A DNA stretch of 64,000 nucleotides from Eubacteriales bacterium (GTDB taxonomy: Bacteria > Bacillota > Clostridia > Oscillospirales > CAG-272). The stretch lies in NCBI GenBank assembly GCA_045538895.1, contig JAZQEH010000028.1, positions 1,882 to 65,881 of the forward strand, in the 5' to 3' direction. The notes under the pieces were generated by a model. It was not told the origin of the DNA. It saw only the letters and a program-made list of their open reading frames with translations, and searched no databases. The position numbers and the translations under genes were made by a program. Positions 14,192 through 38,783 of this stretch are shown here, in pieces; the first letter of the stretch is position 1; each line of letters opens with the position of its first letter.

Positions 14192-14874
14192 TATTTATCC
14201 TCCTTTGCCTGTGCACAACCGCCGTGACATACAGATGCGGTGGGACAGCCTGCACATGAAAATTCTTTCTTTTTAATAATTTTACCGTGGGTAAGCTTAT
14301 TTACAACGGCAATCATAATGCCGTAAACAAGCAGACCGCCGGGTGCTTTTGTCATAATTGCAATGGGGTGAGTTGACAAAACGGGAATCGGGATACCTGC
14401 AAACGAGCCTGCACCGAGCACCTCGCGGACAGTTGCGATAGAGAGGAGTGCAAGCACAAATCCGATACCCATACCGATACCGTCAAGTGCCGACTTGCCA
14501 ACTGTGTTCTTACCTGCAAACATCTCTGCTCTGCCTAAGATTATACAGTTAACGGTGATAAGTGCAAGGTAAACGCCGAGCATTTCATAAAGGTCGGGCA
14601 GAAACGCATGCATAAACATCTCAACCATTGTTACAAAGCCTGCAATTACAACGATGTAACAAGGAATACGTACTTCATCGGGAATAAGCTTGCGGAGAAG
14701 CGAAATGAATACGTTTGAACAAATGAGAACCGCCATGGTTGCAAAGCCCATTGCGATTGCACTTATTACAGAAGTGGTAGTCGCAAGAGTGGGACAGGTG
14801 CCGAGAATGAGAACAAAAACAGGGTTCTCACGGAGAATGCCTTTAAAAAGCACCGAAAGATTATTCTGCTTCAT
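14191..14874 (-). CDS. rnfE: Rnf complex subunit E (with Cys-rich C-terminal tail)
   Basis: ENPVFVLILGTCPTLATTT signature. C-terminal tail is FSCAGCPTASVCHGGCAQ. Confidence 0.9.
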   Translation of the reverse strand: MKQNNLSVLFKGILRENPVFVLILGTCPTLATTTSVISAIAMGFATMAVLICSNVFISLLRKLIPDEVRIPCYIVVIAGFVTMVEMFMHAFLPDLYEMLGVYLALITVNCIILGRAEMFAGKNTVGKSALDGIGMGIGFVLALLSIATVREVLGAGSFAGIPIPVLSTHPIAIMTKAPGGLLVYGIMIAVVNKLTHGKIIKKKEFSCAGCPTASVCHGGCAQAKEDK

Positions 14875-16049
14875 TAATTTGCACCTCCGTTAAGAATTGT
14901 AACTGCTTCAAAGACACGTGAAATTGCTTTCATGTATCCATCCGATGTAATAGTTGCACCGCTTATCGAGTCAACCTCGGTATATGTTTCTGCGGTCTTG
15001 CCGTTATACTGCGAGTAGTATTCGGGAGCAGCACATGCATCGCCAAAACCGTCGCTTTCCTTTTGCGAAACAGTTTCGCAGGCAACGATTTTACCATCTG
15101 CAGTTACGCTTACCTTAATGTAAATGTACTCGCCGGATGCCGGATGATATTTGTTACCACCGTTGATACCGTAGCCGGCAGCTTTTACGTCAAACACATA
15201 GTTGCCGCTTGAAGTTTTGTAAGCCGCAGTAATTGCCGTGGGCATGTCGGCATATGCAGAAACGTCAATATCGGTAAGCTCCCATGAGCGGATGGTTGCA
15301 ACGGCACCTGTAGCTGCCGCTTTTTCCTCAGTGGAAGCACCTGCGCTTATAACCTTGCCGTCAGCATCAACACCAATAAAGCTTTCGCCGATGCAAACAA
15401 CGTATCCTGCTTCATTATTCGCAGAATATACAGTGTCAACTCCCTCGATTACATCAAGCATAAATACAGAAGTAAAGCCGTCAGCCGCAGGGAGGGCAGC
15501 CCCCAGATTATCTGCTAAAATCTCCTCCTCGGTACGTAGATCCACCTCTGCACCGCCGAGTGCAAGCGCAGTATTAAGAGCATCCTTTACCGCATTCTTG
15601 TATGCTTCGGTAGTCTTTGTTGCACCTGCAACAGTGTCAACTGCACCGATAGTGTCGATTGTCGAGCCTACTACGCTATCACCGTAGGTCTTTTCATAGC
15701 CGAGTGTTTCTCCGCTGGAAAGACAGGTTGCACCGGTTACGCTTCCGTTTGCGTCAATACCTACCATAATACTCATGCCGGGATTGAAGCCCACAACAGA
15801 GAGCTTTACAACCGTGCCGCCGTTTTTCTCGGTATAAGCCTCGGTAACGCTTGCGGGAAGCGTATATGCGGAAAGGTCAACAGAAGTAAAGTCTTCGCCG
15901 TCCGGCATTACAACAAGCAAAGCCTCGTTTGCAGCCTTTGCTTCATTTGCGGCTATAACAGGAGCAGTAATGCTGTTTACCGCTGCAAGCATAACCGCTA
16001 TTGCCGCACAGATAAGGGTGAGTGAAAGTATACACTTTATGTATTTCAT
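14874..16049 (-). CDS. rnfG: Rnf complex subunit G, double-length with two FMN_bind domains
   Basis: 391 aa. N-terminal TM anchor. Two flavinylation-type motifs: DTVAGATKT (Thr codon 15618-15620) and DSISGATITS (Thr codon 14952-14954). Confidence 0.85.
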   Translation of the reverse strand: MKYIKCILSLTLICAAIAVMLAAVNSITAPVIAANEAKAANEALLVVMPDGEDFTSVDLSAYTLPASVTEAYTEKNGGTVVKLSVVGFNPGMSIMVGIDANGSVTGATCLSSGETLGYEKTYGDSVVGSTIDTIGAVDTVAGATKTTEAYKNAVKDALNTALALGGAEVDLRTEEEILADNLGAALPAADGFTSVFMLDVIEGVDTVYSANNEAGYVVCIGESFIGVDADGKVISAGASTEEKAAATGAVATIRSWELTDIDVSAYADMPTAITAAYKTSSGNYVFDVKAAGYGINGGNKYHPASGEYIYIKVSVTADGKIVACETVSQKESDGFGDACAAPEYYSQYNGKTAETYTEVDSISGATITSDGYMKAISRVFEAVTILNGGAN

Positions 16050-16975
16050 TACTTGTCACCTCCGATTATCTTGCGTGATGTCCATATATCAATATACGGA
16101 GTAAGAATGTTCATAAGTAAGATTGCAAATGACACGCCCTCGGGATAATTGCCGAACATACGGATCATAACGGTGATAATACCTGCGAGGAAGCCGAAAA
16201 GGATCTGACCGCTCCACGTTGCAGGAGACGTTACGTAGTCGGTAGCCATGAAAATCGCACCGATGAAAAGACCGCCCGAAAGGGTGTAAGCAAGTGCAGT
16301 TGCCGCATTGAAGTCAACAAGCACAAACGTAAAGAGGAAAACCGTGCCGATAAACGCTACGGGGAGATGCCATGTGATGATATGGCGGATCATGAGGTAC
16401 ACACCGCCGATAATGAGTGCGAGTGTACAGGTTTCACCGATCGCACCGCCGTAGTTGCCGAAGAAAAGAGTCATAAAGTCAGGGTGTGCACCGCTTTCTG
16501 CCAGAGTAGCAAGAGGAGTCGCACTTGAAACGGTATCAACCGTAGGGAATGCGCCCTTTGCCATTTCACCGAAAGCAACAAGCATGAACACACGGCCTGT
16601 AATTGCAGGGTTTACGATATTTTTACCGATACCGCCAAAGCAGCATTTTACAACCACTATTGCAAAAACCGAGCCAACAACAGCCTGCCAGAACGGAATG
16701 TTTGCAGGAAGATTAAGAGCAAGCAAAAGTCCGGTTACAACCGCACTGAAATCGTCAATGCTCTGCTCTTTTTTGATTATTGCATTGAAAACAAACTCCG
16801 AAAAAACGCACGTGCCGATGCAGATTGCGATAACCGCAAGTGCACGAAGTCCGAAAATGATAACACCGGCTATCGCCGCAGGAAGCAGTGAGAGTGCAAC
16901 CTCCATCATAACACGTCTTGTAGAGTGAGTGCTATGAATATGCGGCGAGGCGGAAAGATGCAACAAATTATCCAT
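16049..16975 (-). CDS. rnfD: Rnf complex subunit D
   Basis: Polytopic NqrB/RnfD-like membrane protein with SPHIHS near the N-terminus and TSPAT. Start set to ATG 16975, an 8-nt overlap with rnfC. Confidence 0.9.
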   Translation of the reverse strand: MDNLLHLSASPHIHSTHSTRRVMMEVALSLLPAAIAGVIIFGLRALAVIAICIGTCVFSEFVFNAIIKKEQSIDDFSAVVTGLLLALNLPANIPFWQAVVGSVFAIVVVKCCFGGIGKNIVNPAITGRVFMLVAFGEMAKGAFPTVDTVSSATPLATLAESGAHPDFMTLFFGNYGGAIGETCTLALIIGGVYLMIRHIITWHLPVAFIGTVFLFTFVLVDFNAATALAYTLSGGLFIGAIFMATDYVTSPATWSGQILFGFLAGIITVMIRMFGNYPEGVSFAILLMNILTPYIDIWTSRKIIGGDK

Positions 16976-18287
16976 TATGCTTTGCCTCCTCTCTTGCTTT
17001 AGCGGCTTTGAGCGCTGCCTTCGCAAGCTTATGTGTCTGGATAATGGGGCGGTTTGCAGGGCAACAGAATGCACAGCAGCCGCACTCCATACAAAGGTCT
17101 ACACGAAGTTTCTTCAAGGTTTCTTCTTCGCCAAGTCGGTATGCTTCTGCAATAGCCATCGGGTCAAGTCCGAAAGGACAGCGGTTTGTACAACTGCCGC
17201 AACGGATGCAGTTTGTGACCTTTCTCGGTGCAGAGTCCTTTTCGTTAAACGCAAGAAGTGCGTTTGTGTTTTTGAGTACAGGAAGTGACAGTGACGGAAC
17301 TGTAACACCCATCATGGGACCGCCGTAAAGAACCTTGCCGGGCTTACACTTGAGTCCGCCTGCAAACTCAAACACCTCTTCGATAGAAGTGCCGATAGGA
17401 GCAATAACGTTGCAGGGCTTGTTTATTGCACTGCCGTCAACGGTGATAAGTCGCTCAACAAGCGGTATGCCCGTCTTTAAATACTTACCGATTGCCGCAA
17501 CGGTGGAACAGTTAATAACGATACATCCAACGTCAATGGGAAGCTTGCCGCCGGGGACAACCTTTCTTGTAACGTGATAAATCATCACCTTTTCGCCGCC
17601 CTGAGGGTACCTTGCAGGAAGCACCTTTACGCTGACACCGCTATGCTTTGCGGCAATTTCCTGCATTTTGGAAATTGCTTCTTTTTTGTTGTTCTCAATA
17701 CCGAAAATTATCTTTTTAACGCCCAAATACTTTTCAAATGCCTCTATTGCACATTCGATATCGTCGCTGTATTCAAGCATAGCACGTGTATCGCTTGTGA
17801 TGTAAGGCTCACATTCGGCGGCATTGATGATAAGCTCCTCAATACGCTCGCTTTCTACGTTAAGCTTTACATAGGTAGGAAAGCCTGCGCCGCCAAGTCC
17901 TACTATACCGCTCTTTTTTACCGCCTCGATAAAGCTGTCACGGTCGGTAACGGCGGGAGGTGTGCAAGACTCGTCAAGAGTCATTTCTCCGTCGGATTCA
18001 ATGGTGATTGCAGGTGCGGCAGAGCCGTTTGCAACGCCTAACGGTTCAATCTTTTTTACAGTTCCCGAAACGGTTGCATAAACGGGTGAGGACACATATC
18101 CATTCTGCTCGGCGATAAGAGTACCTATATTTACATGGTCACCAACCTTGACAATCGGTGTTGCGGGAGCACCGATGTGCATAGAGGTCGGCAATGTCAC
18201 TGATTTTGGAGCATCCATTCTGACAGCCGCTATTTCTGCGGTATTCTTTCTGTGCGGAACATGGATACTGCGGAGGTTAAAAGCCAT
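16968..18287 (-). CDS. rnfC: Rnf complex subunit C
   Basis: GLGGAGFPT NADH/FMN-site motif and two C-terminal 4Fe-4S motifs (CIRCGSCTNRCP, CMECGCCAFCCP). Confidence 0.92.
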   Translation of the reverse strand: MAFNLRSIHVPHRKNTAEIAAVRMDAPKSVTLPTSMHIGAPATPIVKVGDHVNIGTLIAEQNGYVSSPVYATVSGTVKKIEPLGVANGSAAPAITIESDGEMTLDESCTPPAVTDRDSFIEAVKKSGIVGLGGAGFPTYVKLNVESERIEELIINAAECEPYITSDTRAMLEYSDDIECAIEAFEKYLGVKKIIFGIENNKKEAISKMQEIAAKHSGVSVKVLPARYPQGGEKVMIYHVTRKVVPGGKLPIDVGCIVINCSTVAAIGKYLKTGIPLVERLITVDGSAINKPCNVIAPIGTSIEEVFEFAGGLKCKPGKVLYGGPMMGVTVPSLSLPVLKNTNALLAFNEKDSAPRKVTNCIRCGSCTNRCPFGLDPMAIAEAYRLGEEETLKKLRVDLCMECGCCAFCCPANRPIIQTHKLAKAALKAAKAREEAKHNG

Positions 18288-18495: not shown

Positions 18496-19650
18496 TTAAA
18501 TAAAGATATTCTTGTTTTTTTCTTCGTTTTCATTTATTACCGACAAAAGGCTTTCCTTTTTAATATAGCCACGGATAAGCTCGGCGGCATTGCCTTTTTT
18601 AGGCATTGCAAGAGCGTTTTTTATCTTTCTCACCCTATACCTTGCGGTTTCCGGAGAAATAAAGCAATATTCACTCATTTTTTCGTAATTATAGCCGCAT
18701 ATAAGGCAATAAATAAGCTTCAGATTTACAAGGTCGCTTGTTGCAAGCATACGTTCGAGCCTGCCAATGTCGCCGGTTTGTACGAGGATAGGCTTCTCCT
18801 CTCCCTGCAGAAGCGGAATAAAGGGCTTCGGGCTGCCACAGTTGGCGTCATATGCCATATTTGCGGTGCTTCCCCTTATCTTCAGCGTGGTCGGCAACAG
18901 GTTTTCAGACGCCACAAGCCCATACTTTATACGGTTGAAATACGTTTCAACAAGCAATCTGCCGCAATCGTAAAAGTTAGTTGTAACCGAGGTTATTCCC
19001 TCTCCGTAAAGTCTTGCCATAACGGTATCGGTATGGCTTATAACAAAAAGCTTATTGCTTTCGATTTTGTGGGACTTCAAATACTCTATAAGGCATATTG
19101 CAACAAGGTCGTTTGTGCATATAACGGCATCGAACTGTTCATGTACACTTATAAATTCATCAAATGAATCAAGCATGCTCTCATTGATATAAAAAATGCT
19201 ATCGTGACCGTCATTAACGTATTTACAGAACATCTTTTCTCGACCTGTGTCATTACAGGAGTTACGGTTCACGCCTACAAGTGCAATTCTTTCCTTTTTG
19301 CACATACGAAGATAGTCAACGGTATTTTTCATCGAACCGTCCGCATCGGTGCCGACAAGACTGTACGTAACTGGCAACGGCTGCACAATATGGTTAGCAG
19401 AAAGTATGAAATGAACGTTTGTATCCAAAAGTCCGTTTATCGCTTCATAAAGCCATGACATATTATCGTATAGAAGAATAACAGATGCTTCTTCACCGCA
19501 CTTTTCAACTGCGGCTCTTGCCTCCGAAATGCTTGTAAAAACCTTTGTACGGATACGTCTGCGAGAAGCCTCGTCCGCAATTCCGCGAAGCTTAGTGTCA
19601 CACCAGACACCGTGACGGTATGCGGCATCGCACAAAACAAACAGTGCCAT
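18496..19650 (-). CDS. Transcription regulator: LacI-type sugar-binding (PBP) domain with C-terminal LuxR-type HTH
   Basis: AVICTNDLVAI and ISHTD are PBP type-1 features. C-terminal LIYCLICGYNYEKMSEYCFISPETARYRVRKI is a LuxR/sigma-70 region-4-like HTH. Divergent from the giant gene. Confidence 0.6.
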   Translation of the reverse strand: MALFVLCDAAYRHGVWCDTKLRGIADEASRRRIRTKVFTSISEARAAVEKCGEEASVILLYDNMSWLYEAINGLLDTNVHFILSANHIVQPLPVTYSLVGTDADGSMKNTVDYLRMCKKERIALVGVNRNSCNDTGREKMFCKYVNDGHDSIFYINESMLDSFDEFISVHEQFDAVICTNDLVAICLIEYLKSHKIESNKLFVISHTDTVMARLYGEGITSVTTNFYDCGRLLVETYFNRIKYGLVASENLLPTTLKIRGSTANMAYDANCGSPKPFIPLLQGEEKPILVQTGDIGRLERMLATSDLVNLKLIYCLICGYNYEKMSEYCFISPETARYRVRKIKNALAMPKKGNAAELIRGYIKKESLLSVINENEEKNKNIFI

Positions 19651-19815: not shown

Positions 19816-22800
19816 ATGAAAAAACTATTTGTTTTTGTTTCTGCTTTGTTGTGCATAGTTCTTTTTGCACTCTCGGCAGGAGCTACCGAAAACGTGGCTT
19901 TTGTAGCCGCAGGCGGTATAGGTGACGGCTCAAGTGCCCAGTCACCGCTTGGTTCACTTGCAAACGCATTTGCCGCAGTAGGCGACGGCGGTACTGTCGT
20001 GCTTACAAGTGACCTTACCATCGGCTCGGCAGTAAATCTGCCCGACCACACAGGCACAGTTACGCTAACAAGCGTATACGGTGGCGTTGACTACCGTGCA
20101 ACAAACGATGCGGCTCTCCGCTATACTGCATCCGCTCGTCTTGTACTCGGCGGTCCGACCGTTATCGACTATTTCGACATTGAAATTGACAGCGGTGCAA
20201 ACGGCGGTGCGGTACTCGCTGCCGACTTCAACGACCTCACTATAGGTTACAACGTCGATATCAGCTACAACTACGCTGTTTCGGGTGTTAAGATGTATGT
20301 CATCGGCGGCCCCAACAACGATGCAACCGGCAACATCCTCGGTGCAGGTGAAAGCTGTACCATCGAAATTTACAGCGGTGCATATGAACAGGTAGTCGCA
20401 TTCAGCCGTTCTGTTGCAAATGTGTCGCACAACGGTACCGTTTATATGACTCTTGGCGGTAATGTTTCGGCGCGTCTTTGCTTCCTCGGTGCAGTAACCA
20501 CAGGTGCAAAGGGCGGTTCTTGTGAAGTCACCCTCAAAGAGAACGCAAAAGCAACATGGTTTTATCCCAGCGGTAATGCAAGCTCGATGAACGGCAGCGT
20601 TACCGTCAATGTAAAAGACAACGCAACCATCTCCAATATTGACCGCTATGCGGATTCTCTCTTCCCGAACGGTACAAAAACCATCAACCTTTACGGCGAT
20701 TCCTACACCGTTCCCACAAATCTTGAAAAATACTTCAACACTGTAAATGCATTTGAAGAAGAGCCCCAGCCCCCTGTGGTTTCAGACGCAGTTTTTGTTG
20801 CAGACGGCGGAACAGGTGACGGAACAAGTGAAAGCTCGCCCATAGGTTCTCTTGCATCCGCTTATGCTTCACTCAAAGAAACAGGCGGCACAATTACTCT
20901 TGTTTCCGATACCACGCTTAACACAGACACAACTTTCGCAGACCTTAACGGCAGCGTTACATTCAATGCGAAAAACGATGCTGTTTTAAAACTCAACGGC
21001 AACATCAGCTTCAGCAACAACGAAAATGACGGAACCGTTACCTTTGACCTCCCCGTTTCGGCTTCCAATGCCGCAATCTTCGGCGGTTTTAATGACGTTG
21101 TATTTACCGAAAACTTTGCGGTAACCGGTACACTTGATTTCTTTGGCGGTGTTGATGCCACAAACATTACAAACAATGCTCTGGCAATCACCGAAAAGGC
21201 ATATTCGGTTACTGTAAACGGCGGTACGTTCAACAAGTTTGCTCTTGGCAACTATCGCTCGGAATACAATGATACAGTAGGTTCAATAGCTGCACCCGTA
21301 ACTCTTACGGTAAACGGCGGTACATTCAATACCTCGTTCAGCGTTTCGGGTATGTCTATCCTTGCAGACAATGCAAGTATCAGCATAACCGGCGGTACAT
21401 TCAACTGTCCCGTATACGTTCAGGGCGGTATGAATTCTGTTATCGCACAGGGTGTTAAAATTTCAGGTACAGTTGCTTCCGACCGCAAGTATTACGCAAT
21501 TGACGGCGATATTACCCTTTCAATAAGCGGCGGTACATTCAACGGCGGCACTATCGGTGCATACGAAGTACAGCCTGCATACACACAGGTTATGCGCGGT
21601 AACTACACTGTTTCCGTTACAGGCGGTAATTTCGCAAGCGGCACCGTATTTGATGCAACTCAGGTAAAGGCTTATGCATCTTCCTCAAAGGTTGCAACCA
21701 TTACATACCCTGACACATATACGTTTACCACAAAACTCTTCGATACCGTTAACGGTGCTGCACAAAACGACAAAGAACCTGTCCGTATTGCATTTGTCGG
21801 TGACTCCATCACCGAGGGCTATACTGTTGCGGCAGAAGGTGTAGACAGACTTACCGGCTCATATCCTGCTCTCATAGCTTCTCTTGCTGAAAGCGACTCA
21901 AAGGATGTTGTAGTTTCAAACTACGGTATTTCTTCTGCAGGTCTTTTAAGAGCAACTGCATATTACTATCCCAATTATCTTGCATACAAGATGCTGCTTG
22001 AAGAAACCGATGCCGATTACATCGTAATCGCTATCGGTGTAAATGACAATGCGGCAGGCGGCACCACCGGTGCACAAATCGAATTTGAAACAAACTACCG
22101 CTCCCTTATCGAAACCGTTGGAGCACTTCCCGAAACAGAAAAGGTATTTATCACAAATGCAATTTTCTGGAACGCTTCAAAGCTCGGTTCTATCCGTGCT
22201 ACATCGGTTATCCGTCCCACTCAGGAAAAAATTGCAAAAGAATTTGAAAGTGTAAACGCTGACAAATACATATTTGTTGACCTCTACGGTCTTACACTTG
22301 ACGCAGCAAAGAACGGCACTCTTCTTTCCTCTGATATTCTGCATCCCTCAAAAGCAGGCTTCAGCAAGATGGCTGACGTTCTCTATGGCGTAATGTTTGA
22401 AAATGCTCCTGCTACCACAACAGCTTACAAGAGCAACGACGTTTATATAAGTGCAAGTGGAAATGCTTTTGGCAGCGGCACAAAGGACGACCCCATATCA
22501 CATATCGAATTTGCCTTTGCAAAGCTCCCCTTGAATGAGGAATCCACCGTTCACATCGTTGGAAAAGTTCCATTCAGCTCAAGCTTGTTCATCCCCGTTG
22601 GTCCCTCAAAGCTCACTATTGTTGGCGAGGGTGACGGTGCAATTCTTGAAAACGGCTCTGTATCGTTCAAGATCGGCTGTGACGTTAAATTTGACAACAT
22701 CACACTCGCTACAACCGCCACAACCGAAATCTACGGTTGTTACAACGATATCGAAATGACCGACACCGTTGCGCTCAGCGGCAACTGGTCATTCTTTGCA

Positions 22801-25800
22801 GGCCACAACATTTACCGTGAGGGTGCTACCAACGTGGCTCATGATACCGTTGCATCCGCATCGGACAACAAGGACTGCAATATCAACATCTCGGCAACCG
22901 GCACATTCACAAACTTTGCATTAGGTAACCGCCGTAGCGACGGCATAGCTCCCATTGGCACATACAGCGGTAATCTCACAGCATACGTTGGCAACAATGT
23001 CCGTGTAAGTGGAACAAGCATTGTCGGCATAGTGGGCCAAAACTACCTCACAGGTACTGTTACTGCCTCTATTCCCTCAACGGTTGTTCTTGAAGAATAT
23101 GCAAGCATCGGCACTGTTACTTCTCCCATTGTGTACGATGAAAGCAAAAACACGGGCAGCGTTTCCGTTACATCAAGAAACGTTATAGCACCCACAGTAG
23201 CATACGTATCATACGGTGCAAGCGGTAGCGGTGATTCTCCCGAAACACCCGCAGGCACTCTTGCAGGCGCATATGCACTTCTCGATGCAACCAAGGATTG
23301 CACTATCGTGCTTATGAGTGACTATCCTGTAAGCGCTCTTACCACCCTGCCCGCTCACGGTGCTAAGGTAACAATCACAAGCGTTTACGGCGGCGTTGAC
23401 TACCGCACGACCAACAACGCTGCTCTCCGCTATACTGCATCTGCACGAATCGTGCTTGGCGGTGACACCGTAATTGACAACCTGAACATCGAAATCGACC
23501 AGAGTGCAAACAGCGGTGCGGTAATTGCCGCAAACTTTCATGACCTGAAGCTCGGCTACGGTGTTGAAATCATCCACAACTACACCGTTGCAAACTCCAG
23601 AATGTATATCATCGGCGGCTCCAACAACGATGCAAACGGCAACGGTCTTGCCGCAGGTGAAGTATGCAACATCGAAATTTTAAGCGGCGACTATTATCAG
23701 GTAACCGCATTCAGCCGCGGCACTGCCAACAAGGCTCACTACGGCACGGTTAACCTGAAAATCGGCGGCGACGCTACCGTTTTTGAAACATACCTCGGTG
23801 CAGTTACAACCGGTGCGTCAGGCGGTACTGTTAACTTTGAAATCTGTGAAAACGCAAAACTCCACACAAACGGTCTTGCACTCAGCGGTAATGCAGGCAA
23901 CATGAACGGCGACGTTACGGTTACCGTACGTGACAACGCAAGCATTTCAAAATTTGCAAGATATGACGCATCCATCCACGCAGGAACAAAGACTATCAAC
24001 GTTTACGGCGAAAGCATTTCTCTCCCCGCTTCGCTTGAAACGTACTTTGACGTTGTTAACATCTACATCCCCAAGGATAGCGTTACCGTTACCGAAAGCA
24101 TTGATACGGACAAGATCGTTTCCGTTACTGCGGACGGTGCGGCACTTCAGGCAGAGGTAACATCTACTGCAAACGGCTTAACAGTTGAATATACCGAAAG
24201 CCTTGAAAACTTTACGCTTGCTATTACCGTAAAGGATACTTCATATACCGTATATGAATACACCGTTACAGAAACAAACGGCACTGCAAAGGCAGTTCTC
24301 GCAAGCACAAAAACTTATGCAGGTGACGTTGTTTACGTTGGTGCAAAAGACGGAAGCGGTCTTACCCCCGCATCCCCTGTTTCATCCCTTGAAAAGGCGT
24401 ACAACACATTGCTCGGCGACGGCGGCACTATCGTAGTAGTTGATGCCGTAACAATGGCAAGAGTTACAGCTCCTGCACATTCCGGCAAGATTACCGTTAC
24501 ATCCGTTTACGGCGGCACAGACTACCGTGAAAGCGGTGCAAAGCTTGTATGCGCAACCTCGATAGGATGGCAGCTCGGCGGTGAAACCGTAATCGAAAAC
24601 ATTACTGTTGATATCGCAACCACCGCAGTAATCAGTGCGGCATTCAATCCCCTCACCATCGGTGACGGTGTAGAAATAATCAACGATTATTCCTCAAATG
24701 ATGCAAACGGCTTGTATCTCGTCGGCGGACACAACAACTCTACCGCTACCCTCTCCGTTTACCCCGATGACACATCAATAACCGTTCGCAGCGGTCACAT
24801 CAGATGCATTATCGGCTTCTCTCGCTATAGCGGCGCAAGAGTTCATACCGGTAAAGCTACAATCAACGTTGAGGGCGATGCATACGTACGCTACGTTTTC
24901 GCCGGTGCGGTTGAAAACAATGCTACATCAAAGGATGCTGTTATCAACGTACGTGATAAGGCAATCGTTGAAAACCTTTTCGCAGGCGGCAGCACAAAAA
25001 CAAACTATACTACCGGCAAGACTGTTATCGACGTAACCGAGCTTAACGGCGGCGATATTTATGAGTTTGACACTGTTGGTATTTTCACATCCGACGGAAA
25101 AGTAGAACTCCACTATGACCCTCGCACAGTTGCAGAGGGTATCACAACAATGGCAGCAATGGCACGCTTCAACGTGCTCTCCACATGTGACCTCGCAGGT
25201 GCACACACATTTGGTGCAGCATACGCTAATCCCTTTGGCGGCGGGCTTACCGCTCACACCTGTGAAATCTGCGAATATACGTGCCTTATTGAAGCGGCTC
25301 CCGCAAAGGTTGCTGACAAGGTAGTATTCGTAGCAGACGGCGGATTTGGCAACGGTCTTAGTCCTCTCCATCCTTTCGGAAGCCTTGAGGATGCATTCAA
25401 CGCTCTCGGAAGTGACGGCGGCACTATCGTACTTGTAGACGAATGCACACTCCCTGTAAACCTTGTATGGAGATTCGGTGCTTCCCACGTTTCGTTTATG
25501 GAACCCGTTCACAAGGGTAACGTACTTATCACAAGTGTTTACTCAGATGCAGACTACCGTGAAAACGGTGCAAAGCTTATCTTTGACGGCAATATGCACT
25601 ACCGTTTGAGCGGTCCTACCACATTTGACAACATCGTATTCGACACCGTAGGCAATCCCACAACAAACCTTATCGCAGCCAGATACAATCCTCTCGTTTT
25701 CGGTGAAAACTGCAAGATGAACAGGACAAATGCTGACGGTTACAACCTCTGGGTTGTAGGCGGATATCAGTACTTCCGCTTCAGCGATTTCACCGGTGTT

Positions 25801-26778
25801 GAAATTGACGACCCCAGACTCGAAATGGTAAACTCTGCACGTCCCCGTGCATGGGATTTTGCGCCCGATGACCTCACAGATATGCAGTATGTCAGCGGCA
25901 GCGGCAAGACTCACACCGTTACTCTTCAGGAAGAAGCCGCAGCAGCATTCACTGCTATGTTCAATGACATGAGAGAAGCGGGACTTTACGTTCCTTATCC
26001 CAGCTGGCCCTTCCGTAGCGCACATACACAGTACGGTATCTTCTCTGACTCGGTTGGTAATATCCGTGCTAAAGGATACGACTTCAACACTGCATACAAC
26101 TCTGTAGCAAAGTCCGCTAACCCTCCCGGATTCAGCGAACACCAGCTCGGTCTTGCATTTGACATCTACGATGAAAGACTCGAAGAACAGTACGGTGCGG
26201 GCAAGGCACACGAGCATTACCATGACACCGCAGAGTGGCAGTGGATCATCGACAACGGTGCAAAGTACGGCTTTATCCACCGTTTCCTTGCAAACAAGAC
26301 CGCTCAGACAGGTATCATGTATGAAGCATGGCACTTCCGTTACGTAGGCGTAGAGCATGCGATGGCAATAGCCGAAACTGACGGATACTGCCTTGAAGAA
26401 TACGTAGGTCAGACCATCGGTCTCTTCGACCAGAACTCAAGCGTAACCGTTCTCTCGGGTGACTTCTATCAGGTAATGGGCGGTTCCCGCGGATGCGATA
26501 ACCTCACATTTACAGGTACAAGACACGTAACCGTTGGCGAAAAGGCAAACGTTATCAACCTTGTTGACGTTGATGCTGAAGTTGGCGAGGTTGTCAACCC
26601 CACCCTTGGCGACGCAACCGGCGATAAAACCGTAAATCTCGTTGACGTACTCCGTGTATTCAAGTACCTCATTGATAACAGCACTAAAATCGTTACCGAG
26701 GCAGCTGACGCAAACGTTGACGGCAAGATTGATATACTTGATGTGCTTTATATCATCAAGCTTATCGTAAACAGCTAA
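19816..26778 (+). CDS. 2320-aa secreted multidomain protein: six beta-helix-like modules, SGNH/GDSL esterase, VanY-type (M15B) peptidase, C-terminal type I dockerin
   Basis: Signal peptide MKKLFVFVSALLCIVLFALSAGA and SD AGGAGG. GDSITEGY (about 21799) and DILHPS (about 22333) are SGNH blocks. SEHQLGLAFD (about 26134) and EAWHFRYVG (26323) are the M15B zinc/catalytic motifs. Dockerin duplicate Ca-binding loops GDATGDKTVNLVDVL / DANVDGKIDILDVL at 26608-26775. Confidence 0.9.
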   Translation: MKKLFVFVSALLCIVLFALSAGATENVAFVAAGGIGDGSSAQSPLGSLANAFAAVGDGGTVVLTSDLTIGSAVNLPDHTGTVTLTSVYGGVDYRATNDAALRYTASARLVLGGPTVIDYFDIEIDSGANGGAVLAADFNDLTIGYNVDISYNYAVSGVKMYVIGGPNNDATGNILGAGESCTIEIYSGAYEQVVAFSRSVANVSHNGTVYMTLGGNVSARLCFLGAVTTGAKGGSCEVTLKENAKATWFYPSGNASSMNGSVTVNVKDNATISNIDRYADSLFPNGTKTINLYGDSYTVPTNLEKYFNTVNAFEEEPQPPVVSDAVFVADGGTGDGTSESSPIGSLASAYASLKETGGTITLVSDTTLNTDTTFADLNGSVTFNAKNDAVLKLNGNISFSNNENDGTVTFDLPVSASNAAIFGGFNDVVFTENFAVTGTLDFFGGVDATNITNNALAITEKAYSVTVNGGTFNKFALGNYRSEYNDTVGSIAAPVTLTVNGGTFNTSFSVSGMSILADNASISITGGTFNCPVYVQGGMNSVIAQGVKISGTVASDRKYYAIDGDITLSISGGTFNGGTIGAYEVQPAYTQVMRGNYTVSVTGGNFASGTVFDATQVKAYASSSKVATITYPDTYTFTTKLFDTVNGAAQNDKEPVRIAFVGDSITEGYTVAAEGVDRLTGSYPALIASLAESDSKDVVVSNYGISSAGLLRATAYYYPNYLAYKMLLEETDADYIVIAIGVNDNAAGGTTGAQIEFETNYRSLIETVGALPETEKVFITNAIFWNASKLGSIRATSVIRPTQEKIAKEFESVNADKYIFVDLYGLTLDAAKNGTLLSSDILHPSKAGFSKMADVLYGVMFENAPATTTAYKSNDVYISASGNAFGSGTKDDPISHIEFAFAKLPLNEESTVHIVGKVPFSSSLFIPVGPSKLTIVGEGDGAILENGSVSFKIGCDVKFDNITLATTATTEIYGCYNDIEMTDTVALSGNWSFFAGHNIYREGATNVAHDTVASASDNKDCNINISATGTFTNFALGNRRSDGIAPIGTYSGNLTAYVGNNVRVSGTSIVGIVGQNYLTGTVTASIPSTVVLEEYASIGTVTSPIVYDESKNTGSVSVTSRNVIAPTVAYVSYGASGSGDSPETPAGTLAGAYALLDATKDCTIVLMSDYPVSALTTLPAHGAKVTITSVYGGVDYRTTNNAALRYTASARIVLGGDTVIDNLNIEIDQSANSGAVIAANFHDLKLGYGVEIIHNYTVANSRMYIIGGSNNDANGNGLAAGEVCNIEILSGDYYQVTAFSRGTANKAHYGTVNLKIGGDATVFETYLGAVTTGASGGTVNFEICENAKLHTNGLALSGNAGNMNGDVTVTVRDNASISKFARYDASIHAGTKTINVYGESISLPASLETYFDVVNIYIPKDSVTVTESIDTDKIVSVTADGAALQAEVTSTANGLTVEYTESLENFTLAITVKDTSYTVYEYTVTETNGTAKAVLASTKTYAGDVVYVGAKDGSGLTPASPVSSLEKAYNTLLGDGGTIVVVDAVTMARVTAPAHSGKITVTSVYGGTDYRESGAKLVCATSIGWQLGGETVIENITVDIATTAVISAAFNPLTIGDGVEIINDYSSNDANGLYLVGGHNNSTATLSVYPDDTSITVRSGHIRCIIGFSRYSGARVHTGKATINVEGDAYVRYVFAGAVENNATSKDAVINVRDKAIVENLFAGGSTKTNYTTGKTVIDVTELNGGDIYEFDTVGIFTSDGKVELHYDPRTVAEGITTMAAMARFNVLSTCDLAGAHTFGAAYANPFGGGLTAHTCEICEYTCLIEAAPAKVADKVVFVADGGFGNGLSPLHPFGSLEDAFNALGSDGGTIVLVDECTLPVNLVWRFGASHVSFMEPVHKGNVLITSVYSDADYRENGAKLIFDGNMHYRLSGPTTFDNIVFDTVGNPTTNLIAARYNPLVFGENCKMNRTNADGYNLWVVGGYQYFRFSDFTGVEIDDPRLEMVNSARPRAWDFAPDDLTDMQYVSGSGKTHTVTLQEEAAAAFTAMFNDMREAGLYVPYPSWPFRSAHTQYGIFSDSVGNIRAKGYDFNTAYNSVAKSANPPGFSEHQLGLAFDIYDERLEEQYGAGKAHEHYHDTAEWQWIIDNGAKYGFIHRFLANKTAQTGIMYEAWHFRYVGVEHAMAIAETDGYCLEEYVGQTIGLFDQNSSVTVLSGDFYQVMGGSRGCDNLTFTGTRHVTVGEKANVINLVDVDAEVGEVVNPTLGDATGDKTVNLVDVLRVFKYLIDNSTKIVTEAADANVDGKIDILDVLYIIKLIVNS
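19888..20754 (+). repeat. Intragenic duplicated module (copy 1), paralogous to 23182-24066
   Basis: About 290-aa modules are colinear with long identical stretches, e.g. TSVYGGVDYR.TN.AALRYTASAR.VLGG and YLGAVTTGA.GG. Similarity is also visible at the DNA level. Confidence 0.8.
23182..24066 (+). repeat. Intragenic duplicated module (copy 2), paralogous to 19888-20754
   Basis: See copy 1. Weaker copies of the same module start near aa 326, 880, 1500 and 1838 of the protein. Confidence 0.8.
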
Positions 26779-26789
26779 TACGATTCAAG

Positions 26790-26825
26790 AATTATGCGGC
26801 GGAATACCGCCGCATAATTTATCAA
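26790..26825 (+). terminator. Stem-loop terminator after the giant gene
   Basis: 13-bp perfect stem aattatgcggcgg / ccgccgcataatt with a 4-nt loop, followed by TTTATC. It ends about 10 nt before the next ATG. Confidence 0.65.
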
Positions 26826-26831: not shown

Positions 26832-28988
26832 ATGGAAAACAGAATTATACACGTCGCAAACAGCGACGAATTTGAAAAGGCATTTCAAGAATTAGCAAAC
26901 GGCGGTACGGTAGTCCTTACCGATACGGTTATTGCAAAACAGGCACGGCTTGCCCATCACAGCGGTATTATCACCGTTACAGGCAAGACACTGTGCTTTA
27001 ATGAGTCGGTAACCGTTACGCTCGGAGGAGAAACCGTTTTTGAAAACATAACCTTTGACATTGCTTCGTCAGGAGTAATTGCGGCTGACTTCAATCCCGT
27101 TACATTCGGTGACGGCATTAAAGTAAACTGCGACATGTCGATAGAACAAAACGGACTCTACGTAGTTGGCGGCGAAAACAACTGTTTAAACGAAAAAGAG
27201 GAGTACTGCGGCGATACAAGCATCACCGTTGCAAGCGGCGCCTTCAGCCGCATTGTCGGTTTTTCAAGAGGATGTGCAAGCCGAAGTCACACAGGACATG
27301 CGACTCTTACCGTTAAAGGCGATGCCTATGTACGTTATCTTGTTGCAGGTGCAATGGGCGACGGTGCCACCGCAAAAAGCGCTACCCTCAATCTACATGA
27401 CAGTGCAGTTATTGAAGCTGTACACATGGGAGGTGCCAAGGAGGAAAACACACTTTTTGGCGATATGGATATCTTTGTTGACGGCGGAGATATTTTCCGC
27501 TTTGACAGGGTGTGTCTTTCGGCAGTACGTGGAAAGCGTTCTCTGGTTTATAATGAAGAAACTGCACCGAAAGGGCTTTTATATCTTGCAAAGCTTGCAC
27601 GTTTTGATGATATAAAAACCACGTGTGATACAGACGGTCACACTTTCGGCAAGCCTTTTGCCAATCCTTTCGGCGGTGAAGCGATGATACGCAAATGCAG
27701 TGTATGCGGCAAAACCGAAATTGTAGGCGACAGCAATTATGCACCGCAGAAAGACGTTGTTTTTGCTGCTGATGGCGGTTTCGGTGACGGTTCCTCACCG
27801 TATTACCCAATCGACGGCTATGCTAAAGCATTTGAACAACTTGAAAACGGAGGCACGCTTGTGCTTTGCGGCAAATGTGTCCTGAAAGCAAATCTCGTTG
27901 ACCAGTTCAGAGAAGTTACCGATGCATATCAGGAGCCGCGTCACAAAGAAAAAATCACCGTTACAAGCGTATACGGCGGAACAGACTACCGCAAAGACGG
28001 TGCCTGCCTTTACTTTGAAAATAATACCGACTACAGAATGTCGGGGGCTACCACGTTTGAAAACATGGATTTTGATGCGGCAAGCAACGTAAAAGGCAAC
28101 CGCATTATAGCAAGATACTCGCCCCTCGTTATCGGCGAAAACTGTCACACCCCCGTGCGTGACGGCTACAAGCTTGACATAATAGGCGGATACCTTAAAT
28201 TCAGGTATTCGGATTTTGACGGTGCTGAAATAGAGAACGAGTATGAAGAACTTGTAGGCGTTTGCCGTACTCTGCCGCTCGACTATGAAATAGCCGACCT
28301 TGAGCCTATTAAAAGATATCCTAACTTCTCGCTGAGAAGCAAGGCGGCAAGAGCCTTTAACGAAATGTTCGACGATATGGAAAAGGACGGACTGAAAGTA
28401 CCCACCGTAACCGATGCAATGCGTCCATATGCACGGCAGTACGCCTTGTTTACAGGTTACCTCGGCCGCCTGCGTCGCACGTTTGGTTACAGCTTTGACG
28501 AAGCACTCCGTGTAGTAATGCGTTCCTGTGCCGTTCCCTGCTGCTCTGAGCATCAATGGGGTGTTGCGGTTGATATGTACCACCTTGACATGGTGCAGTA
28601 CGGTTCGAAAAAGCATCACTATTTTGATATCACTCCCGAATGGGAATGGGTGCATGAAAACGGCAAAAAATACGGTATAGTTTTGCGTTATGCCGCAGAT
28701 AAAACCGATATCACGGGATGTATCTATGAAGCATGGCACTTCCGTTATGTCGGCAAAACTGTTGCAAGAATACTCCTTGCAAGAGGACTTTGCCTTGAAG
28801 AATACATGGGAGCAAAGCTTGGACTTTTGAACCTTGATTCAAGCGTTACCGTAAAAAGCGGTGTGTTTAACTCAATCACCCCGTTCTCCCGTGAAACGGG
28901 ACTCATGCAACTTACAGGCAAGCATTTTGTTTCTATTTCTGACGGAGTTACCGTAAAAGAAAAGAACAACGAACTTTCGGAGTGCTGA
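26832..28988 (+). CDS. 718-aa signal-less paralog of the C-terminal third of the giant protein (two beta-helix-like modules plus intact VanY/M15B domain, no dockerin)
   Basis: Colinear with giant residues about 1490-2230. CSEHQWGVAVD (about 28545) and EAWHFRYVG (28728) are retained. The N-terminus MENRIIHVANSDEFEK is hydrophilic. No GG-containing SD upstream. Confidence 0.8.
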   Translation: MENRIIHVANSDEFEKAFQELANGGTVVLTDTVIAKQARLAHHSGIITVTGKTLCFNESVTVTLGGETVFENITFDIASSGVIAADFNPVTFGDGIKVNCDMSIEQNGLYVVGGENNCLNEKEEYCGDTSITVASGAFSRIVGFSRGCASRSHTGHATLTVKGDAYVRYLVAGAMGDGATAKSATLNLHDSAVIEAVHMGGAKEENTLFGDMDIFVDGGDIFRFDRVCLSAVRGKRSLVYNEETAPKGLLYLAKLARFDDIKTTCDTDGHTFGKPFANPFGGEAMIRKCSVCGKTEIVGDSNYAPQKDVVFAADGGFGDGSSPYYPIDGYAKAFEQLENGGTLVLCGKCVLKANLVDQFREVTDAYQEPRHKEKITVTSVYGGTDYRKDGACLYFENNTDYRMSGATTFENMDFDAASNVKGNRIIARYSPLVIGENCHTPVRDGYKLDIIGGYLKFRYSDFDGAEIENEYEELVGVCRTLPLDYEIADLEPIKRYPNFSLRSKAARAFNEMFDDMEKDGLKVPTVTDAMRPYARQYALFTGYLGRLRRTFGYSFDEALRVVMRSCAVPCCSEHQWGVAVDMYHLDMVQYGSKKHHYFDITPEWEWVHENGKKYGIVLRYAADKTDITGCIYEAWHFRYVGKTVARILLARGLCLEEYMGAKLGLLNLDSSVTVKSGVFNSITPFSRETGLMQLTGKHFVSISDGVTVKEKNNELSEC

Positions 28989-31747: not shown

Positions 31748-32929
31748 ATGGCAAGCATCACTTTAAACGTAAAAATGCTCGGCAAATTTACATTGTCGTA
31801 TGAAGACGTGCAGATTACTTCTGACAACAGCCGTTCAAGCAAGCTTTGGTGTACCCTTGCATACCTGATTTATCACCGTGGCAGAGTGATTTCTGCCGAT
31901 GAGCTTATCACGCTTCTCCGTGCAGACGAAAAAGAAAACGCAAATCCGCAGAGCACCCTCAAAACTACGGTTTTTCGTTTGCGTGCCCTTTTAAATACTG
32001 TTTATGACGGTTTGGGCAGAGATTTGATTGTCAGCCGTGACAAGGGATATACAATCAACCCCGATTTTGAAATTATAACGGACTATGAGAAATTTGAAAA
32101 GTTGCTATCCAAAAAAGATACCGACAGTCATGTTGAAGCTTTGGAGCTTTATAGCGGTAATTTTTTGAATTCTTTTTCTTCCGAAGCCTGGATCATCCCT
32201 ATCTCTGCATATTACTACAACACATATGCGCAAGCACTCGTGCAAACCGTGCCGCTTCTTGAAGAAAAAGGCTTATTTGAACTCGGTGTAACTCTTTGCA
32301 AAAATGCTATTGCCATTGATTCATACGCAGAGCCTTTTTACCAAATGCTTATGCAATGTCTGCTTGCACTTAACAAGCGTAACGAGGTTGCGGTAATTTA
32401 TGAGAATATGAGCAAAACTTTGCTTTCCACCTTTGGTGTGATGCCCGATGCAGAAAGCCGTGCTCTCTACCGTGAGGCTCTCCGCACTGTTAATCTGCAC
32501 GTCCTCACACCCGATACGCTTTATGAGCAGCTTGATGAAATTGGGCCGATTACAAGTGCCCTGCTTTGCGATTTTGATTTTTTCAAAATGCTGTATCAGG
32601 CAAATGCACGAATGATCGCACGCAGCGGTGATGCCGTTCACATTGCACTGCTGACGGTGGTTTCCTGCACAAAGAAGGAGCTTCAACGCCGCAGTCTTGA
32701 CCTTGCAATGGACAATCTGCAAGCCCTGCTTTGCTCGTCATTACGCAAAGGGGATGCTATTTCACGCTGTGCTTCTTCCCAGTTTGTGATAATGCTTCCG
32801 CAAGCAAATTATGAAAACAGTATTGCGGTATGCAACAGAATTATTGATGCGTTTTCCCGTAAATACCCCCACTCTCCCGCAAGAATTGATTACTTTGTTA
32901 AAGCTATCGTTCCGGCAAAGGACAGTTAG
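31748..32929 (+). CDS. SARP-type regulator (OmpR-like winged helix + BTAD) fused to a degenerate GGDEF domain
   Basis: N-terminus LGKFTLSYEDVQI...SKLWCTLAYLIYHRGRVISADELITLL...TTVFRLRALL follows the SARP pattern. C-terminus RKGDAISRCASSQFVIMLP aligns to RxxD-x5-GGDEF, with the active site replaced by ASSQF. Confidence 0.75.
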   Translation: MASITLNVKMLGKFTLSYEDVQITSDNSRSSKLWCTLAYLIYHRGRVISADELITLLRADEKENANPQSTLKTTVFRLRALLNTVYDGLGRDLIVSRDKGYTINPDFEIITDYEKFEKLLSKKDTDSHVEALELYSGNFLNSFSSEAWIIPISAYYYNTYAQALVQTVPLLEEKGLFELGVTLCKNAIAIDSYAEPFYQMLMQCLLALNKRNEVAVIYENMSKTLLSTFGVMPDAESRALYREALRTVNLHVLTPDTLYEQLDEIGPITSALLCDFDFFKMLYQANARMIARSGDAVHIALLTVVSCTKKELQRRSLDLAMDNLQALLCSSLRKGDAISRCASSQFVIMLPQANYENSIAVCNRIIDAFSRKYPHSPARIDYFVKAIVPAKDS

Positions 32930-32938
32930 GATTTTAAT

Positions 32939-34198
32939 ATGTTAAAACGGATTTTTCTTATCTCTTTAATTCTTTTTGTCATTTCAAGCTTTGTGTCTTG
33001 TATCGAAACTACTGTTATCGAACATACGGCTTCAGATATCGTTTCGGTTACCGATGCGGCGACAACTCCTCATGAAACCGAAACCGTAGCAGCAACGGCT
33101 GAGGTTACTACTACCGCCGAAGTCACTACCACTACAGAGGTTACTACCACCGCCGAGGTTACTACCACTACAGAGGTCACTACCACCGCTGAGGTTACTA
33201 CCACTACAGAGGTTACTACGACAGCCGAGGTTACTACTACTGCCGAGGTTACTACTACTGCCGAGGTCACTACCACCGCCGAGGTCACTACCACCGCCGA
33301 GGTTACTACCACCGCCGAGGTTACTACTACCGCCGAGGTCACTACCACCGAGGTTACTACGACCACAGATGAAGTTACAGACAATATACCTCCGGCTATT
33401 ATAGACTTTGTGCCTACTGCTTCGGGTATCCATACAAAAGAGTGTGACGATGCTATTATTGACTACTCAAACGCTCATAACGGATACATCATGATTAAAT
33501 TCACAACACCTACACCATCACGCATCAAGGCACAGGTAAAATGCATAAACAACACGTATACATACAATATCACGCCCGAAAAATGGACTGTACTTCCCCT
33601 CTCCGAGGGAAACGGAGTTTATACCGTTACAGTTTTCCAAAACGTTTCAGGCTCTAAATATGCAACTGTGCTTTCTGCTGACGTTACTGCAAGCATAACA
33701 GACGAAACGTCGGTTTTCCTTTATCCCAATCAGTACGTTGACTATTCGGAGGCACAAAAAACAGTAAGCAAAGCCTCATCGCTCACGAAAGGGCTTACGG
33801 ATCCTCTTGACAAAGTTGCAAAAATCTACAACTTTGTGACAAGCACGCTTACCTACGACACAAAGAAAGCCCAAACCGTTCAAAGCGGATATCTGCCTGT
33901 ACTTGATGACGTACTTGCGGCAAAAAAGGGTATCTGCTTTGACTATGCCGCTTTAATGGCAGGTATGCTCCGCAGTCAGGGAGTGCCGTGCAAGCTTGTT
34001 GTCGGATATGCCGGTGAAGCCTACCATGCATGGATCAACGTATGGTCCGAGAGTTCGGGCTGGATAAACGGTGTTATCTTCTTTAACGGAACCGCTTGGG
34101 AAATGATGGACCCGACTTTCGCATCCGCAAGCAGTGACGAAACGCTTATAAAATATATTGGCGACGGTAAAAACTATACCGTAAAATACCTATACTAA
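32939..34198 (+). CDS. Transglutaminase-like (Cys-protease fold) lipoprotein with Thr-rich stalk
   Basis: Signal/lipobox SSFVSC. (AEVTTT)n linker. Transglutaminase core KKGICFDYAALMAGMLRSQGVPCKLVVGYAGEAYHAWINVW, with the catalytic Cys codon at 33935-33937. Confidence 0.8.
   Translation: MLKRIFLISLILFVISSFVSCIETTVIEHTASDIVSVTDAATTPHETETVAATAEVTTTAEVTTTTEVTTTAEVTTTTEVTTTAEVTTTTEVTTTAEVTTTAEVTTTAEVTTTAEVTTTAEVTTTAEVTTTAEVTTTEVTTTTDEVTDNIPPAIIDFVPTASGIHTKECDDAIIDYSNAHNGYIMIKFTTPTPSRIKAQVKCINNTYTYNITPEKWTVLPLSEGNGVYTVTVFQNVSGSKYATVLSADVTASITDETSVFLYPNQYVDYSEAQKTVSKASSLTKGLTDPLDKVAKIYNFVTSTLTYDTKKAQTVQSGYLPVLDDVLAAKKGICFDYAALMAGMLRSQGVPCKLVVGYAGEAYHAWINVWSESSGWINGVIFFNGTAWEMMDPTFASASSDETLIKYIGDGKNYTVKYLY
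33098..33366. repeat. 18-bp in-frame tandem repeat (AEVTTT), about 15 copies
   Basis: gccgaggttactaccacc-type unit with synonymous variation. Entirely within the transglutaminase CDS. Confidence 0.9.
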
Positions 34199-34211
34199 AA
34201 AGGAGTTTTGC

Positions 34212-35240: not shown

Positions 35241-35242
35241 TT

Positions 35243-35566
35243 ATGAAAAACACAAGTTTTGTAATAAGGCTTTTTAATGCCCTGAAAATACCTACCTTAA
35301 TTGCCGTTTGTGCAGTATTGTTTTTCTTTGCGATAGCGAACATGAACGAATCTCAAAGCGAAGAAATGCGTTTGCGGCTTGAAGATGCTATCCGTCAAAG
35401 TGCGGTTGCATGCTATGCGGCAGAGGGAAAGTACCCCGAAAGCCTTGATTATCTTGAAAAAAACTACGGAGTGCAAATTGACCGTGAACGCTACAATGTG
35501 TTTTATGAGGTCTTTGCTGAAAACCTGATGCCAAATGTAGCAGTAGTGGAGGACAGGTATGAATAA
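35243..35566 (+). CDS. 107-aa membrane-anchored hypothetical protein
   Basis: One N-terminal TM helix (IPTLIAVCAVLFFFAIA). The ATG lies 2 nt after the pilC-like stop. The track's longer start overlaps the upstream gene. Confidence 0.5.
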   Translation: MKNTSFVIRLFNALKIPTLIAVCAVLFFFAIANMNESQSEEMRLRLEDAIRQSAVACYAAEGKYPESLDYLEKNYGVQIDRERYNVFYEVFAENLMPNVAVVEDRYE

Positions 35567-36786: not shown

Positions 36787-36799
36787 AGGTACGAAAAAT

Positions 36800-38714: not shown

Positions 38715-38783
38715 CTTTTCACCCCTTTCTTATAAGTCAAGGCTTGGTTGCCCAAGCCTCAACTTTTTAGGATTTTATAAGGA

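Follow-up and report, generated by a model that had tools for sequence, protein, structure and literature searches.

A secreted, dockerin-bearing clostridial protein with a VanY-type peptidase nested inside a repeat module, and its conserved gene neighbourhood

Results

The stretch of DNA analysed here (hereafter the window) comprises 64,000 nucleotides (nt) of an uncultured Eubacteriales bacterium of gut type (Clostridia, Oscillospirales, CAG-272; assembly GCA_045538895.1, contig JAZQEH010000028.1, positions 1,882 to 65,881 of the forward strand), and our subject is a large gene at window positions 19816-26778 (+) together with its immediate neighbours. The gene is a single intact open reading frame of 2,320 codons for a 2,320-amino-acid (aa) surface protein, preceded by an AGGAGG ribosome-binding site 7 nt 5' of the ATG. 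The protein opens with a Sec-type signal peptide (19816-19884, +; aa 1-23, MKKLFVFVSALLCIVLFALSAGA/TENV, cleavage after AGA), assigned by eye rather than with a predictor, and a similarly hydrophobic N-terminus is present in 137 of 148 family representatives. A lipoprotein identity was considered and rejected, as the sole Cys of the signal peptide has no preceding lipobox. The mature part consists of six repeat modules, an SGNH esterase between modules 2 and 3, a VanY/M15B zinc peptidase and a C-terminal dockerin. This inventory, including a full VanY motif set, had been put forward in an original prediction from the sequence, and Pfam matches and motif positions bore it out, each of its motif coordinates being verified. 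The active sites are intact, the peptidase is nested within the last module and the gene lies in a conserved neighbourhood. While the pairing of dockerin and VanY is known, the nested design and the conserved regulator and partner genes have not been reported before.

The peptidase domain (25816-26415, +) matches Pfam VanY at aa 2036-2178 with an E-value of 1.2e-27 (96.8 bits against a cut-off of 25) over profile positions 3-131 of 132, and the region retrieved VanY-B (5hnm, 2e-20), LdcB (4ox5, 1.4e-17) and VanXY (4mur, 3e-15) in a sequence search of the Protein Data Bank (PDB). An AlphaFold2 (AF2) model of aa 1500-2262, built from a 20-sequence family alignment (A1), reached a predicted local distance difference test score (pLDDT) of 87.4 and a predicted template modelling (TM) score (pTM) of 0.83, and its VanY part matched 5hnm, 4ox3, 4mph and 4mur in Foldseek (E 4e-9 to 2e-6, target-normalised TM 0.68-0.79). 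The two signature motifs are SEHQLGLAFD at 26134 and EAWHFRYVG at 26323, and residues R2067, H2109, D2116, E2170 and H2173 align with VanY-B. Throughout alignment A1, the zinc ligands H2109, D2116 and H2173, the catalytic E2170 and the motifs SEH..G.A.D and E.WH are invariant, and 18 of the 20 sequences retain the carboxylate-binding R2067. By these criteria the domain belongs to M15B, and its active site appears to be functional; when we checked whether the catalytic region scores to a non-peptidoglycan family, the Pfam, PDB and fold matches all fell to the peptidoglycan peptidase family.

Two deviations within the domain deserve mention. One dockerin-bearing clade (L004 2905-7362, P0011 and P0019) carries a Gln (AMQSY) in place of the Arg equivalent to R2067, which hints at a different substrate specificity. 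Besides, the domain contains a His-rich insertion (26164-26235; aa 2117-2140, columns 650-680 of alignment A1) that VanY-B lacks. It reads KAHEHYHD in the large proteins and KKHHY[FY]D in their paralogs, with one His nearly invariant, and may constitute an extra metal- or substrate-binding element.

Module 6 is split around the peptidase. Its N-terminal part (25306-25815, +) is the equivalent of module 1 residues 13-165, with which aa 1834-1985 align, and its C-terminal part (26416-26565, +) follows the VanY domain, with aa 2206-2246 aligning to residues 179-214 of module 1 and 1285-1322 of module 4 (E 3.8e-5 against module 4; 2.5e-4 in a second comparison). In the AF2 model of aa 1500-2262, beta strands likewise resume past the helical VanY domain. 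Because the module sequence picks up again behind VanY, the peptidase is an insert in the loop after the "GG.NN" turn of module 6. The order of module 5, Cys/His linker (where present), N-terminal part of module 6, VanY and C-terminal part of module 6 is fixed in 15 of 15 VanY-bearing representatives; the unit is a conserved cassette rather than a fusion by chance. Module 5 (24325-25185, +), delimited by self-comparison and the same AF2 model, opens the cassette and is joined to module 6 by a Cys/His-rich linker (25186-25305, +; TCD...H...H.C..C) that is kept in alignment A1 save for one clade and recurs in relatives. This knuckle may represent a clade-typical extracellular zinc-binding linker. 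A membrane-anchored cohesin protein (L085 13452-14444) and a fragment (L086 3-437) upstream of a paralog of the cassette contain similar H...C..C repeats.

Such a paralog is also present in the window. Downstream of the large gene, a 718-aa protein (26832-28988, +) comprises a module 5, the Cys linker and a module 6 with nested VanY (Pfam VanY E 1.4e-26). It and aa 1524-2246 of the large protein share 42% identity (E 8e-170); its catalytic motifs are intact, and it has neither signal peptide nor dockerin. The paralog family counts about 15 proteins of 684-734 aa, most of which end in a conserved (S/T)EC (e.g. ELSEC, EASEC or ESTEC; the window paralog ends in ...SEC). On the other side, a divergent gene (18496-19650, -) encodes a one-component regulator with a LacI-type Peripla_BP_3 sensor (Pfam E 2.9e-9) and a C-terminal helix-turn-helix; its ortholog at locus L004 additionally matches HTH_30.

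We compared this arrangement over the window and nine further loci. All 10 of the 10 distinct loci have a regulator ortholog (41-85% identity, full length) beside the large VanY gene, and a signal-peptide-less peptidase follows this gene in seven: the paralog in three (window, L001 and L084) and an M20D amidohydrolase in four (L004, L091 and, twice in tandem, L087). The remaining loci, L089, L092 and L093, have no downstream partner. Assignment of the M20D partners rests on TIGR01891, to which they score 178-190 bits against a cut-off of 153.75. At L086, paralog and M20D gene lie adjacent to each other, and genome GCA_045540755.1 holds two separate loci, one with the paralog (L084) and one with M20D (L091). 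In L087 (6687-20428; JGI 3300022753) and L088, a unit of regulator, 1,475-aa VanY-dockerin protein and M20D amidohydrolase is tandemly duplicated. A scan of genome contigs with generic VanY patterns returned at least one full-cassette locus (L004) among the matches listed, a count that gives no estimate of prevalence.

The exact 2,320-aa protein was absent from the assembly collection. An ortholog of 2,321 aa with 84% identity was assembled independently in three samples (L001-L003) with matching layout, a 71%-identical paralog behind and the same divergent regulator in front. Only 4 nt separate the large gene from the paralog at L001. In the window, a 13-bp perfect hairpin without T-run (AATTATGCGGCGG-aata-CCGCCGCATAATT; 26790-26819, +) lies between the two genes; the terminator scan gave no plus-strand terminator score at this position, and promoter and terminator scans of the locus in general were at chance level.

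The six modules open with a shared motif at aa 27, 325, 876, 1128, 1506 and 1834, and their mutual similarity is far beyond chance. Self-comparison separated two subtypes, an A-type with the hallmark T-S-V-Y-G-G-x-D-Y-R (modules 1, 4, 5 and 6) and a B-type (modules 2 and 3). Module 1 (19885-20763, +), beta-helix-like in its AF2 model, is closest to module 4 (23182-24075, +; 58% aa identity, E 1e-60 to 1e-67), followed by module 5 (E 1e-22) and module 6 (E 1e-20). Module 2 (20764-21780, +) was recognised by its similarity to module 3 (22390-23181, +; E 3e-9, 27% identity), which has the most divergent opening motif of all. Between modules 4 and 5 lies an 83-aa, Thr/Val/Glu-rich linker domain without Pfam match (domain X; 24076-24324, +) that occupies the same position in relatives.

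Modules 1 and 4 are similar also at the DNA level (69% identity over 642 nt, E 1.6e-68), as the original prediction had stated. Its suggestion of a recent duplication, on the other hand, does not hold. Module 1 is 96% and module 4 is 84% identical to its own counterpart in the L001 ortholog, and the two modules are 55% identical to each other in both genomes (window and L001). Since each module is closer to its own counterpart than to the other, the duplication is old and predates the split of the two lineages. We also considered an assembly artefact and rejected it, given the identical architecture in independent assemblies and a DNA identity of 69%, too low to confuse an assembler.

As to their fold, a Pfam search with each of the six modules returned zero families at E<=10, the Beta_helix, Pectate_lyase and NosD clan models included; NCBIfam models were unmatched and a PDB sequence search with modules 1-2 was unproductive. 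An AF2 model of module 1 alone was of high confidence (pLDDT 92.3, pTM 0.91). Foldseek found no match to it in the PDB at E<=1e-3, and its best structure matches (E 0.065-2, TM <=0.35) were all beta-helix or beta-solenoid proteins, with phage tail fibres, antifreeze proteins, pectin methylesterase and PL3 and PL6 lyases among these weak matches. Among predicted viral structures (BFVD), the best match was a phage tail protein (E 4.9e-3, prob 0.98, TM 0.40). Judged from the model, a beta-helix fold class is thus plausible for the modules, and this much can be retained of their earlier description as pectate-lyase-type or polysaccharide-type. Membership in a pectate lyase family, however, is not supported, there being no Pfam or significant PDB match, and catalytic residues cannot be inferred.

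Searching 1.84 billion representative proteins exhaustively with HMMER uncovered 350 relatives of module 1, 134 of them at E<=1e-10, compared to 6 proteins in a word-indexed homolog search, whose index misses the module family. Nearly all relatives carry a signal peptide, and they come as single-module proteins with sortase-like tails or as multi-module giants. Among 40 sampled relatives, the co-occurring Pfam families were VanY (13), Dockerin_1 (13), GH43 (7), GDSL (5), SLH (2) and S9 (2), along with Rhamnosidase, CBM9, M14 and others (one each). The module family looks like a general-purpose stalk that displays enzymes on surfaces.

Single-module relatives P0123-P0126 (alignment A3) consist of a signal peptide, the module, a Thr/Pro/Ala-rich linker, P[AD]TGD, a hydrophobic stretch and a KKRER tail, an arrangement that looks like a sortase sorting signal. 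Another family member resides in the window itself, where a 1,221-aa protein (57246-60911, -) with signal peptide, SLH domain and a weak ADP-ribosylglycohydrolase-like region contains one A-type module at aa 40-277 (E 6e-25 to module 4). Hence, the uncurated module is also used on an SLH-anchored protein in the same genome.

One might ask whether the large protein serves chiefly as a structural fibre or adhesin of the surface, its enzyme domains being accessory or vestigial. Long repeats of beta-helix-like modules, the weak structural likeness to phage tail fibres and adhesins and the resemblance of single-module relatives to wall-anchored surface proteins would fit this idea. Yet, both enzyme domains retain their full catalytic motifs in orthologs down to ~40% identity, and the VanY cassette is maintained also as a separate, anchor-less protein, so that we consider a chiefly structural role highly improbable.

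The second enzyme domain, an SGNH/GDSL esterase (21781-22389, +), matches Pfam Lipase_GDSL_2 at aa 660-848 (E 2.7e-18; 67.5 bits against a cut-off of 32.9). Its motifs are FVGDSITEG at 21793-21819 (GDS at 21799-21807) and DILHPS at 22333, with Ser664 within GDS (block I), N743 and D744 within GVND 741-744 (block III) and D840 and H843 within DILH 840-843 (block V); the Gly of block II could not be assigned with confidence. A B2-GDSL-B3 cassette recurs in P0129, P0137, P0138 and P0141.

At the C-terminus, Pfam Dockerin_1 matches aa 2264-2317 (E 1.7e-8; 34.9 bits against a cut-off of 22.9), and the domain (26605-26775, +) holds two loops for calcium binding, DATGDKTVNLVD (aa 2266-2277, at 26611) and DANVDGKIDILD (aa 2298-2309, at 26707). 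Nearly all secreted family proteins end in a dockerin; P0145 has a transmembrane helix and L093 an unrecognised C-terminal domain instead. In a related metagenome-assembled genome (L085), the gene for a membrane-anchored cohesin protein lies 1.4 kb away from the paralog.

A dockerin is commonly taken as a sign of fibre degradation. The modules and the esterase could act on plant polysaccharides in the manner of a cellulosomal enzyme, with the VanY fold co-opted for a substrate other than peptidoglycan or serving in binding alone. Besides the dockerin itself, the fusion of module relatives to GH43 (7/40), rhamnosidase and CBM9 speaks for such a function, as does the frequent occurrence of SGNH enzymes as carbohydrate esterases of dockerin proteins (CE3, CE12; PMC2930009, Table 2). 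The present protein, however, has only a generic SGNH esterase to offer: as for carbohydrate-active enzymes of plant-cell-wall type, no glycoside hydrolase, polysaccharide lyase or carbohydrate-binding module family of Pfam scored at E<=1 with the whole protein or at E<=10 with single modules. The zinc-binding and catalytic Glu residues of VanY are invariant in the family, which favours a working peptidase, and the partner genes are peptidases rather than sugar-utilisation genes. Because of these invariant residues and peptidase partners, both the plant-fibre and the structural explanation lose ground, and we hold the former to be quite improbable.

A second dockerin protein that is not a carbohydrate-active enzyme was noted at the window end, where a truncated gene (63298-63999, -) encodes the C-terminal end of a subtilase (Peptidase_S8) with a dockerin behind it, implying that dockerins of the source organism are not confined to plant-cell-wall enzymes. 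That an M15B domain should be found on a dockerin protein had been called unexpected in the original prediction, but both the pairing and the idea of an attack or defence role are already in the literature. Ruminococcus flavefaciens FD-1 has one "VanY protease" among 16 peptidase modules in its 222 dockerin proteins (Rincon et al. 2010, PMC2930009, Table 2), and two dockerin-bearing D-Ala-D-Ala carboxypeptidases from a bovine rumen metagenome were suggested to serve in defence or attack (Bensoussan et al. 2017, PMC6487960).

With regard to the wider setting, genes of the Rnf complex (RnfC, RnfD and an FMN-binding RnfG-like protein) lie at 14874-18287 (-), immediately upstream of the regulator, a context absent from the L001 ortholog locus. 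Downstream, surface-structure genes extend over 31748-41429, among them a BTAD/GGDEF-like regulator, a transglutaminase-like protein (32939-34198), T2SS-F and T2SS-E type pilus genes (34212-37852) and an 881-aa protein with VWA, GBS104-like immunoglobulin and SpaA tip-pilin-like domains (38784-41429, -). A mobile or phage origin of the locus was rejected on account of its housekeeping neighbours (the Rnf complex and others) and the lack of a marked shift in composition.

Discussion

The nested peptidase, the surface anchor and the conserved partner genes invite the question of what the system does. We favour, with roughly even confidence, a role in which stem peptides of the producer's own wall, or of wall fragments that have been released, are trimmed and turned over, as opposed to the killing of competitors. 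Carboxypeptidases of the M15B family trim stem peptides and do not cleave cross-links; some VanY-family phage lysins are endopeptidases, which keeps lysis conceivable on sequence grounds. It is because M15B carboxypeptidases leave cross-links uncut, and because the secreted forms bear surface anchors, that we lean towards the own wall and its fragments. In the mechanism we propose, the six beta-helix-like modules would form the elongated scaffold of an exported, surface-tethered enzyme stalk that holds the SGNH esterase between modules 2 and 3 and VanY in the last one, and the C-terminal dockerin would bind a cohesin displayed by the producer cell. The peptidase would strip the C-terminal D-alanine from peptidoglycan stem peptides, with zinc presumably held by H2109, D2116 and H2173, E2170 acting as putative catalytic base and R2067 probably gripping the substrate carboxylate. 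Expression of the large gene would be controlled by the adjacent ligand-sensing regulator. The cytoplasmic partner peptidase (here the signal-peptide-less copy of the VanY cassette, elsewhere the M20D amidohydrolase) may then perform an intracellular reaction within the same metabolism of peptides or cell-wall precursors.

The same genes can be read as a system for the scavenging of, or attack on, foreign walls, in which the docked protein would have other bacteria's peptidoglycan or necromass as its target: the esterase would remove O-acetyl groups, VanY would clip stem peptides and the paralog or M20D enzyme would finish imported fragments as nutrients, unless the outcome is simply a weakening of competitors. 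With its ligand-sensing regulator, large extracellular multi-enzyme protein and cytoplasmic peptidase, the locus does have an inducible, catabolic look; the module family is common to extracellular glycoside hydrolases, and Bensoussan et al. (2017, PMC6487960) proposed that dockerin-borne D-Ala-D-Ala carboxypeptidases and lysozymes serve in competition. However, a carboxypeptidase that removes just the terminal D-Ala would cause no lysis and yield little nutrient, and at the loci examined the conserved unit comprises no transporter, glycosidase or amidase. We therefore rate this scenario as rather unlikely.

Several points nonetheless weigh against stem-peptide trimming at the producer's own surface. 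The substrate-specific NCBIfam models for VanY-B/G, VanXY and LdcB score at ~75 bits with cut-offs of 250-400 (76.4 vs 400, 75.2 vs 250 and 75.2 vs 275), and these scores do not discriminate between the subfamilies, i.e. between a DD- and an LD-carboxypeptidase. For the GDSL region, a PDB sequence search was unhelpful and a word-indexed homolog search empty, leaving no pointer to a substrate. The 64-kb window contains no homolog of the L085 cohesin, as judged by a weak single-sequence test. The paralog, although predicted to be cytoplasmic, retains two beta-helix-like modules. Module relatives are fused to GH43, rhamnosidase and CBM9, a setting of nutrient acquisition. Finally, an inducible multi-enzyme protein of 2,320 aa is unlike the small, constitutive, membrane-anchored housekeeping enzymes LdcB/DacB.

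A bolder reading, which in this full form is unlikely, would see regulator, surface protein and cytoplasmic peptidase as an undescribed ligand-induced system of uncultured Oscillospiraceae-type Clostridia for the processing of peptidoglycan peptides. Here, the module would be a new glycan-strand-binding platform that places the nested M15B domain on stem peptides, and the cassette would work in two compartments, docked outside and, as signal-peptide-less copy or replaced by M20D, inside.

The locus provides a well-resolved case of a peptidoglycan-type enzyme on a dockerin, putatively displayed via cohesin. It defines a VanY cassette nested in an uncurated module family of ~350 representative clusters, a candidate new family for domain databases. 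The cytoplasmic partner peptidases are identified, and the ligand of the dedicated regulator could reveal the inducing signal. If the substrate were confirmed, the system would illustrate how cell-wall peptides are managed or harvested by Clostridia of gut and rumen at the cell surface. The advance is at the level of annotation and comes as no surprise, since the pairing of dockerin and VanY was noted in 2010 and 2017.

Several known systems resemble parts of this one. The dockerin-VanY proteins of R. flavefaciens FD-1 (PMC2930009) and the bovine rumen (PMC6487960) likewise join VanY and a dockerin on one polypeptide in gut- or rumen-type Clostridia; these reports are annotations, compared here by description only, and make no mention of nesting, repeat modules, a paralog or a regulator. 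With LdcB/DacB and VanY-B/VanXY (4ox5, 4mph, 5hnm, 4mur), the peptidase shares the fold (TM 0.7-0.8), the zinc ligands H-x6-D ... H, the catalytic Glu and the substrate Arg. Those enzymes, however, are stand-alone proteins of ~180-270 aa with a membrane anchor or none, whereas the window VanY is an insert in a module loop of a 2,320-aa dockerin protein, has the His-rich insertion KAHEHYHD and scores far under every substrate-specific NCBIfam cut-off. Right-handed beta-helix proteins of the pectate lyase clan and phage tailspikes appear to resemble the modules in an N-terminal cap motif with stacked short strands behind it, and all weak Foldseek matches belong to this class, yet the modules have no hidden Markov model match, no better structure match than E 6.5e-2 in the PDB and 4.9e-3 in BFVD (TM <=0.44) and no identifiable lyase or hydrolase catalytic residues. 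Paenibacillus ChiW (PDB 5gzt; SLH, beta-helix and GH18) is also a large exported protein that combines a non-catalytic, beta-rich stalk, catalytic domains and a dedicated non-covalent surface anchor; in the window protein the anchor is a dockerin rather than SLH/CWB2, the catalytic domain is nested rather than appended and the structural match is not significant (E 1.8). The same plan of stalk, enzyme and surface anchor is shared by S-layer and cell-wall-protein families that bear peptidoglycan enzymes.

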